Source: Vicingaceae bacterium (GTDB taxonomy: Bacteria; Bacteroidota; Bacteroidia; Flavobacteriales_E; Vicingaceae). Taken from it: a DNA stretch of 64,000 nucleotides. How positions within the stretch are numbered: the first letter of the stretch is position 1; each line of letters starts with the position of its first letter. Of this stretch, positions 54,459 to 55,871 are shown piece after piece. Made by a program: the position numbers and the translations under genes. The stretch covers positions 27,503 through 91,502 of the forward strand of contig CBDDFS010000003.1 in NCBI GenBank assembly GCA_965227255.1, read 5' to 3'. Under the pieces are notes generated by a model. It was given only the letters and a program-made list of their open reading frames with translations. It did not search any database and was not told the origin of the DNA.

Positions 54459-54959
54459 TTAGGACTTTGGCGGGGGCTTTTCTTCGTTGTTTGACGAGTG
54501 CTTATTAACAATGCGCAGCACCCGACTGAGTGAATAAACCAAAACCACATAGATCCCAATAAAAGATCGAAAGGAAAGATCCAGATAATAACAAAGGGCA
54601 AAACTCAGACCCAACAGCGAAAAAGACATGATGGCGATAAACAGGATCAAAAACAGGCTGTTTTTATTCTCGTCGTCATTTTTCTCCAAGATCTCATTTC
54701 TTGTCAGATAAGTCTGATGTGCCTTATGGGATAAAAGAAGATCCAGAAGATAAGAGCCAAAGGAAAGTACCAGGGTAAAGAGAATCGCCACCTCAAAGGG
54801 CCAAACCAGGAAAGACTCATGATTGAGAAAATACAAACTCAAGTACCACACCGGCCCAACGGTCAAGATATAGATGATGATCTGATGGACCGGGGTGTCT
54901 AAATTTCTTACGTCGTCTAAAACACCCACCTTAGTCTTCTTTTTTGGCGATCTTCTCAA
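54459..54959 (-). CDS. Island membrane protein C (4 predicted TM helices), unknown function
   Basis: The ORF has a TTG start at 54959. An alternative GTG at 54929 lies 1 nt after the upstream stop. There are four hydrophobic helices and no recognisable motif. Confidence 0.6.
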   Translation of the reverse strand: MRRSPKKKTKVGVLDDVRNLDTPVHQIIIYILTVGPVWYLSLYFLNHESFLVWPFEVAILFTLVLSFGSYLLDLLLSHKAHQTYLTRNEILEKNDDENKNSLFLILFIAIMSFSLLGLSFALCYYLDLSFRSFIGIYVVLVYSLSRVLRIVNKHSSNNEEKPPPKS

Positions 54960-55584
54960 GGCGCTTTTGAGCCTTGAGCTGCATTTCTTTCAAATGAGCC
55001 ATTTCCATGAGCGCCTGATGCAGTTCACCCTCGCCCTGGTCCAGCTCGCTGGAAGCGATCATCAAATTGTGAATCGCCTGGTCGGTGGCTTTGTTGATGG
55101 CCGGAAACTGATCGTTCAGAATCGTTTCTGAGATCCGATGATTCTGGGATTCTTTCTTGATCACCTGGCGGATCATGCGGTAATAAGAGCCGTATTTCAG
55201 AAAATCCCAGACCGCCCAAAAGCCGCCGCCAATGAAAAGCACATAGCCCGCTCCTTCAAAGAAATTCCAGGCGCCAGGATCCATCCACACCCCCAGCATC
55301 AAAAAAACGCCCCAATACAAGGCCAGGATCGATGCGCCCACCAGGATCGAGGCAGATCTTCTATGCGCGCTTGACAGCACCAACACCACCACGCCATAAT
55401 AGATCAGATTGGCATAGATGCTAAAGGAATAAAGCGAAGCGCTGGCATCGGTGTAATAATCTTTCACCAGGGGCTCAATCCAAGCGCAAAGCCACTGGGA
55501 CTGATACCAGGTGGTGGTAAAAGCCAAAAAAAGGCCGATGTAGATCAGCCTTTTCAAGAGTCTCTCCTGGATGAATTCGGTCAT
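54931..55584 (-). CDS. Island membrane protein B (4 TM helices plus a C-terminal coiled-coil-like tail), unknown function
   Basis: 217 aa. ATGA overlap with the upstream gene. The hydrophobic core is followed by a charged helical tail (ELHQALMEMAHLKEMQLKAQKRLEKIAKKED). Confidence 0.65.
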   Translation of the reverse strand: MTEFIQERLLKRLIYIGLFLAFTTTWYQSQWLCAWIEPLVKDYYTDASASLYSFSIYANLIYYGVVVLVLSSAHRRSASILVGASILALYWGVFLMLGVWMDPGAWNFFEGAGYVLFIGGGFWAVWDFLKYGSYYRMIRQVIKKESQNHRISETILNDQFPAINKATDQAIHNLMIASSELDQGEGELHQALMEMAHLKEMQLKAQKRLEKIAKKED

Positions 55585-55871
55585 GATCCGTTGGGTCTTT
55601 TGATCTCCTTGGGCACCCCGCCATCGTTGTACTCGCGGATGATGTTGGAGCCCTGCCTTTTGTCCAGAGCGCTGAATCCAACTCCTTCAAAAAGCACTTC
55701 ATCAATTTGTGAAGCATCCACCCCTGCGTTCATCTTATCACATACCGTTTCTCCCGGTTTGGGCCACTGTTCTTGGGTACCACCAGTATAAGTTATTGTC
55801 AATAAGGTTACAAGAGAACAGTCACCGCTCGCTTTGTTTTTAAACCAAGGTTCGTATTCTGATTCTGTCAT
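55581..55871 (-). CDS. Island small soluble protein A (96 aa), unknown function
   Basis: First gene of the leftward cassette. Its stop overlaps the next start (ATGA). Confidence 0.55.
   Translation of the reverse strand: MTESEYEPWFKNKASGDCSLVTLLTITYTGGTQEQWPKPGETVCDKMNAGVDASQIDEVLFEGVGFSALDKRQGSNIIREYNDGGVPKEIKRPNGS

Follow-up and report, generated by a model that had tools for sequence, protein, structure and literature searches.

The described systems closest to the locus analysed here are the lambda RexA/RexB-type pairs, which lie near the repressor, in the immunity or central region, and have their own promoter and terminator. In RexA/RexB, gp30/31 of mycobacteriophage Sbash, gp30/31 of mycobacteriophage Butters and gp43/44 of Gordonia phage CarolAnn, a gene for a soluble protein is followed by a gene for a four-pass membrane protein (PMC6426596, PMC7542560, PMC6426606), and the RexAB-like pairs of Sbash and Butters are expressed from the prophage (PMC6426596, PMC7542560). 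Also relevant are the superinfection exclusion (Sie) proteins. The sie genes of lactococcal phages sit between repressor and integrase (PMC7693887), and ltp of TP-J34 is located in the same repressor-integrase slot of the lysogeny module (PMC3952083); SieF7/2AB has two components, a membrane protein and its soluble partner (PMC7693887), and P22 SieA is a small polytopic inner-membrane protein (PMC10883804). We describe here a pair of genes, A and B, found in a 64-kb stretch of a Bacteroidota chromosome (Vicingaceae bacterium, contig CBDDFS010000003.1; this whole stretch is called the window, and coordinates refer to it unless another locus is named), at the edge of a phage-like element that runs from ~54.4 kb to the window end. 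A few Bacteroidota temperate phages and remnants have A and B as a conserved two-gene operon in their lysogeny (immunity) region. The features of the region, in which HTH stands for helix-turn-helix and aa for amino acids, are the following:

55581-55871, minus strand: gene A, a 96-aa acidic soluble protein with an ATG start and no signal peptide
54931-55584, minus strand: gene B, 217 aa, with an ATG start that overlaps the stop codon of A (ATGA)
54459-54929, minus strand: gene C, 156 aa from a GTG at 54929, 1 nt past the stop codon of B (TAA-G-GTG)
55900-55907, minus strand: -7 box of the Bacteroidota type, TATTTTTG, 28 nt upstream of the start codon of A
54322-54365, minus strand: intrinsic terminator of the A-B-C unit, with a 15-bp stem (54332-54365), a 4-nt loop and a U run, about 95 nt past C
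55919-55926, plus strand: back-to-back -7 box, TATATTTG, facing gene X, 176 nt upstream of its start codon
56031-56046: operator-like palindrome, TACGTATTTCTACGCA
56103-56453, plus strand: gene X, a 116-aa basic protein (21 K+R, 8 D+E), between the repressor gene and A
56450-56830, minus strand: HTH repressor-like gene, 126 aa, with an N-terminal HTH and a C-terminal coiled coil, and weak matches to HTH_26 and Phage_CP76
56929-57243, plus strand: gene in the cro position of the phage-like element

An earlier note on this DNA, made from its letters alone, had proposed A-B-C as a candidate exclusion or defence cassette. The three open reading frames (ORFs), both junctions, the -7 box and the terminator that it described could all be confirmed; gene X did not figure in its description of the cassette. 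In codon scoring, the annotated frame ranks first of the six for A, and likewise for B and for C.

The conservation of the operon was assessed by comparing four lineages: the window element, the L086/L087 group, L090 and L089. When the concatenated A, B and C sequences were used as a phmmer query against 1.84 billion representative proteins, three relatives of A, one of B and none of C were found. The relatives of A (P0004, P0005 and P0007) are 38-46% identical to it and support A as a gene (E 1.7e-11), and that of B (P0006) is 26% identical (E 2.9e-5), with further B homologues being encoded at 8266-8958 of L090 and 1835-2266 of L089. All four matches (P0004-P0007) are singleton clusters. The loci that contain them are organised as follows, arrows of transcription being given as leftwards or rightwards:

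L086/L087/L088/L091/L092 (Logan runs SRR267867xx): cro-like gene of 105 aa (leftwards), HTH gene of 136 aa (rightwards), X' of 126 aa (leftwards), A' of 105 aa (rightwards), B' of 225 aa (rightwards), strong terminator, tyrosine integrase (rightwards)
L090 (ENA): formyltransferase, two small ORFs, RadC (leftwards), HTH gene of 151 aa (rightwards), X'' of 132 aa (leftwards), A'' of 108 aa (rightwards), B'' of 230 aa (rightwards), nitroreductase, acyl carrier protein
L089 (JGI): fructosamine kinase, TonB_C protein (leftwards), A''' (rightwards), B''' (rightwards), the latter cut by the contig end

A and B are thus adjacent and on the same strand in all four lineages, with an ATGA overlap in the window, L090 and L089 and a 4-nt gap in L087, and three of these lineages also have X and an HTH repressor gene alongside. 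The trio that the earlier note had proposed as a unit does not co-occur elsewhere: what is conserved is the pair A+B, mostly accompanied by X and the HTH repressor, and not A+B+C. The L086 phage and the window element also share orf104, orf210 and orf143, and are therefore syntenic relatives. X-A-B occurs in none of the 80 primase-sharing loci with other repressor types, which argues that the module travels with the repressor type and not with the replication module, and no hidden member of A, B or X was found by hmmsearch of the family profiles over all ORFs of 93 loci. In L090, a 3.2-kb island (5753-8958), consisting of the two small ORFs, RadC, HTH, X, A and B, lies between purN-like and nitroreductase genes. 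This island has no integrase or structural genes and looks like a decayed prophage that has retained only its immunity region.

The relatives of A reveal a set of invariant residues, including D17, C18, C44, M47 and the C-terminal motif V86-P87-x-x-I90-x-R92-P93. When modelled by AlphaFold2 from the four-sequence alignment, A reaches a predicted local distance difference test score (pLDDT) of 97 and a predicted template modelling score of 0.88, the model from the single sequence being poor (pLDDT 52). A pLDDT of 97 obtained from four sequences only is unusual and warrants an independent re-prediction. The model comprises, in this order, a long N-terminal helix, a beta-hairpin, a short helix, a three-stranded meander and an extended C-terminal VPxxIxRP peptide, and no structural neighbour was found for it by Foldseek against the PDB and BFVD (best E 0.09, template modelling score 0.46). 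As modelled, A is a small cytoplasmic protein of unrecognised predicted fold, whose translation is coupled to that of B.

The predicted product of B is an inner-membrane protein with four transmembrane helices and a long, amphipathic cytoplasmic tail. The hydropathy profile of B displays two strong segments (51-73 and 77-102) and two weaker ones (~13-35 and 113-129), and its loop charges fit, according to the positive-inside rule, an N-in/C-in topology with four transmembrane helices followed by an 88-aa cytoplasmic tail. This tail is 31% charged and heptad-like, with a 3.5-residue hydrophobic periodicity (shuffle fraction 0.03). An Asn in the second transmembrane helix is invariant in the family. 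The G+C content at third codon positions (GC3) of B resembles that of the element's own genes. For C, four hydrophobic segments are read as four transmembrane helices. These results agree with the topologies proposed earlier for B (four helices and a charged tail) and C (four helices).

C stands apart from this pair. It has no homologue in the representative proteins searched, nor among ~15 billion proteins overall, and no C-like gene lies downstream of B in L087, L090 or L089; B is followed by an integrase gene in L087 and by a nitroreductase gene in L090. What identifies C as a gene is its ORF length, its codon score, its transmembrane pattern and its position before the terminator, and only these. 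An alternative TTG start at 54959 would give a 166-aa protein (54459-54959), and the gene caller of the protein database picked the 156-aa GTG form (P0002). No similarity was detected when B and C were compared. An internal duplication in C, suggested by 27-nt repeats in the DNA, was dismissed, being non-significant at the protein level (57 of 1000 shuffles). C is a lineage-specific orphan added between B and the terminator, outside the conserved module. Its addition may be recent, and it perhaps acts as an immunity protein or as a second effector at the membrane; that it is not expressed at all is less likely.

The promoter of the operon is assigned by the position of its -7 box. Boxes of the TAnnTTTG type are known from the Bacteroidetes literature. 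As the motif is not enriched in the window (39 matches, 48.6 expected), only the position of the box counts as evidence. X is divergent from A and convergent with the repressor gene, the 3' ends of the two genes overlapping by 4 nt in the window, and by 32 and 4 nt in L087 and L090, respectively. Since X can be aligned with genes of the same relative position and orientation in L087 (1211-1591, minus strand, 126 aa) and L090 (7267-7665, minus strand, 132 aa), we consider it to be a real gene. The positional counterparts of the repressor in these two loci (136 aa in L087 and 151 aa in L090) are clear phage-repressor HTH proteins. The sole match of X in the PDB, entry 9ums_C ('Prt'), for which no mention was found in the literature, was weak (domain i-Evalue 0.12) and was not trusted.

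The palindrome located between X and A fits TGCGTA-N4-TACGCA with one mismatch; the window contains no other match to this motif. In L086, the motif is present three times with a 32-nt spacing in the X'-A' intergenic region (9805-9884), a count reached by none of 200 shuffles. It is absent from the repressor/cro intergenic regions of both the window and L086. We infer that X, rather than the repressor, binds TGCGTA-N4-TACGCA, because the palindrome is found at X-A and missing at repressor/cro, which has an inverted repeat of its own. The latter, in the window, consists of two 13-nt arms, TGTCACATATTTG and CAAATATGTAACA (56858-56870 and 56905-56917), each of which resembles a -7 box with one mismatch, and a further palindrome, TGACGTCA, lies between the arms. 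This inverted repeat probably marks face-to-face switch promoters or operators.

No match to A, B, C or X was obtained in Pfam, PHROGs, PADLOC, NCBIfam, the PDB or GenBank phages, in keeping with the earlier statement that A, B and C contain no known family. In particular, tblastn returned nothing from 50,697 GenBank phage records, and the only proteins retrieved with A, B and C from a word index of 5.8 billion protein clusters were the queries themselves. In IMG/VR, no true relative was found with B, the primase, the repressor and orf210 or with the family alignments of A, B and X; two matches were dismissed, as they were due to an 18-residue low-complexity stretch. Sequence-profile searches of the PDB likewise yielded nothing for A and B. 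In PADLOC-DB v2, A, B, C, X and their homologues remained unmatched, the generic models matching only the Dam methyltransferase and HTH proteins.

How, then, does A-B compare with the systems introduced above? It shares with the RexAB-like pairs the succession of a soluble and a four-pass membrane gene, the location near the repressor and the possession of its own promoter and terminator. It differs from them in several respects. Lambda RexA has 279 aa and A only 96; B carries an extra 88-aa tail that is wanting in the 144-aa RexB; and A-B is not co-transcribed with the repressor, because X intervenes on the opposite strand. In hhalign comparisons, the A family matched lambda RexA with a probability of 0.2 and the B family matched RexB with a probability of 0.1. 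No RexA/DUF4747 domain was found by Pfam in A and its homologues (E<=1), B has no Pfam RexB match, and BLASTP of C against RexB gave an E of 0.39. As A and B could not be placed in the RexAB families by any of these comparisons, the likeness to RexAB is one of analogy, not of membership. With Sie2009, SieF7/2AB, Ltp and SieA, A-B has in common its association with the membrane and its place in the lysogeny module. It has no homology to them, A lacks a metalloprotease zinc motif and a lipobox, and the hosts of A-B are Bacteroidota. Some defence operons possess a dedicated divergent transcriptional regulator, as in the control of the CapH/CapP or BrxR type. A small regulator-like gene divergent from the operon and palindromic operators in the shared intergenic region are also found here; unlike those regulators, X has no recognisable HTH or WYL domain, and its DNA binding is putative.

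Our preferred interpretation, to which we give a probability of about 40%, is that X-A-B is an X-regulated membrane exclusion module, analogous to Rex or Sie systems, that protects the lysogen against other phages. The A-B pair would probably be expressed in the lysogen, its expression being set by the divergent, basic X protein, which probably binds the palindromic operator(s) between both promoters. A would probably dock on the cytoplasmic tail of B via its invariant C-terminal VPxxIxRP peptide. By a Rex-like route, A would sense infection and open or activate B, the membrane would depolarise and the infection would abort; by a Sie-like route, B, and perhaps C too, would block DNA entry. Within the exclusion interpretation, we prefer the Rex-like mechanism to an injection block, because the soluble partner is obligatory and the cytoplasmic tail of B is large. 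The location of the genes is consistent with such a role. The operon has its own predicted promoter and terminator and is directed away from the lytic genes. In L087, the order is repressor, X, A', B', terminator and integrase, and the same slot is occupied in the window, where no integrase is seen. This bears out the accessory-slot location suggested earlier, the related L086/L087 phage having A'-B', with a terminator of its own, between repressor/X and integrase. Furthermore, phage lytic genes are absent near A-B in L090 and L089, and the retention of A-B in these two loci indicates that the pair is independent of the lytic cycle.

Several observations weigh against an exclusion function. 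None of the proteins is homologous to a known defence, Sie, Rex or abortive infection (Abi) protein, and no known defence gene lies near A-B at any locus, so that the proximity to other defence genes looked for on the basis of the earlier note was not found. A is far smaller than RexA-like sensors (96 vs 279 aa), and the family is extremely rare, with four singleton clusters among ~15 billion proteins. Finally, the order HTH-X-A-B is kept despite a strong divergence of the proteins (repressors ~20% identical, B 25%, X 23%); such stability is more in keeping with core switch genes than with accessory 'moron' genes of fast turnover.

This last point leads to an explanation that we regard as unlikely, namely that X-A-B is part of a lysis-lysogeny control circuit, and not a defence system. 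In such a circuit, B would serve as a sensor in the membrane, and its coiled-coil tail would act jointly with A to sequester or release a regulator, either X or the coiled-coil repressor. Transcription of X, on reaching the repressor gene at its 3' end, would antagonise repressor expression. The order and orientation of HTH, X, A and B are indeed constant in three deeply diverged lineages, with an overlap of the HTH and X 3' ends in every case (4, 32 and 4 nt). X-A-B follows the repressor type, as it is missing from 80 of 80 primase-sharing loci with other repressor types; operator-like palindromes lie between X and A, and coiled-coil-like C-terminal parts are present both in the repressors and in B. 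Against such a circuit, A-B in L089 lies beside a TonB_C gene, with neither X nor an HTH gene upstream, A and B are still intact in the L090 remnant, where there are no lytic genes to control, and the palindrome is absent from the repressor/cro intergenic region. It is likewise doubtful, in our opinion, that HTH-X-A-B as a whole is a self-contained and undescribed immunity-region module, in which a membrane sensor (B), an adaptor of new fold (A), an operator-binding regulator (X) and the transcription of X entering the repressor gene would link the repressor switch, or abortive infection, to an event at the envelope (superinfection or stress of the membrane, for example). The module would in that case embody a new signalling logic for prophages and be more than a further accessory cassette.

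The remaining explanations concern A, B and C themselves. A toxin-antitoxin-like addiction pair, in which a membrane-damaging B would be restrained by the co-translated A and would favour the retention of the prophage or remnant, is improbable. The tight coupling of the two genes with the small soluble one first, the persistence of A-B in remnant-like chromosomal islands and the presence of a putative divergent regulator and operators would fit this idea, but neither protein is similar to toxin or antitoxin families (Pfam, NCBIfam), A has no recognisable DNA-binding domain, and the membrane toxins known so far are usually much smaller peptides than B. Quite improbable, too, is that B acts as a holin-like export channel and A as its cargo, which would reach the periplasm without a signal peptide, form a disulfide there between its two invariant cysteines and block phages in the manner of T4 Spackle or Ltp. 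C18 and C44 are invariant although A has no signal peptide, A is co-translated with a polytopic membrane protein, and its small domain is compact and confidently folded in the model; these features are counterbalanced by the lack of a holin family match for B and by the fact that D17, C18, C44 and M47 could equally be explained as a cytoplasmic metal site. As for B and C being the holin and antiholin of a phage lysis system, we consider this highly improbable. Both proteins are small and polytopic with charged C-termini, but their genes are part of the lysogeny module and point away from the lytic genes, their neighbours being the repressor, X, integrase or chromosomal genes, with no adjacent endolysin. 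Moreover, A-B is kept where phage genes are gone, and C is not conserved at all. A match to phage lysis families, which the earlier note had named as a refutation of its proposal, was looked for, and no holin match was found in Pfam or PHROGs.

If A-B excludes phages, as we favour, another phylum would possess an analogue of RexAB that is not homologous to it; a role in the switch would make A-B a new kind of prophage sensor. The proteins are unannotated and without recognisable relatives, and what they appear to form, a membrane cassette of accessory genes within the lysogeny module of a prophage, is of a well-known kind. Temperate phages of Bacteroidota are poorly studied, and a limited literature search brought up no prophage-encoded system for exclusion or abortive infection in their lysogeny modules. 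A four-part unit, made of the repressor-linked X, the operator, A and B, is now defined, and alignments and a confident model of A accompany it. The extreme rarity of A-B, restricted to four lineages, limits its general importance.

The boundary of the element itself is compositional. GC3 is 0.66 for B, 0.53 for C and ~0.6 for the remaining genes of the element, compared to 0.42 +/- 0.03 for host genes and 0.37 for the adjacent orf133. As GC3 rises from orf133 and the host genes to C and B, the edge of the element is set between 54040 and ~54330, in agreement with the location of the cassette at the element edge that had been proposed earlier. On the host side, 51977-53614 encodes a protein sorted by the type IX secretion system (T9SS). 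When the integrases of L005 and L087 were used as queries, no integrase remnant was found in the window. An integrase is missing from this end of the element (54040-56450), its position in relatives being either right after B (L087, 3195-4244) or beside the repressor (L005, 2872-3960). The element may be a grounded prophage, or its integrase may be situated beyond the window. Exact-protein look-ups of B, the DEAD-box helicase and orf133 brought up no record of an empty integration site, and Rfam gave no credible RNA over 53500-57300. Between host orf133 and the terminator of the cassette, a 44-nt repeat is present in two copies that are 77% identical (54133-54176 and 54253-54296); in both, T runs come after a CGCTTCG(T/C)GAAGCG hairpin. 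These repeats could be related to an attachment (att) site, be elements of the repetitive extragenic palindromic (REP) type, or act as plus-strand terminators.

The other genes of the element include those for a DUF4406 protein, a Dam methyltransferase and a primase/helicase. The latter (59649-62639, plus strand, 996 aa), which has a CHC2 zinc finger, is a member of a large family, with relatives in at least 275 metagenome stretches, many of them from human-gut assemblies; it is 38% identical to a gene in the unannotated 'Bacteriophage sp.' record MT835542.1 and 40% identical to a gene of a Saprospiraceae metagenome-assembled genome.

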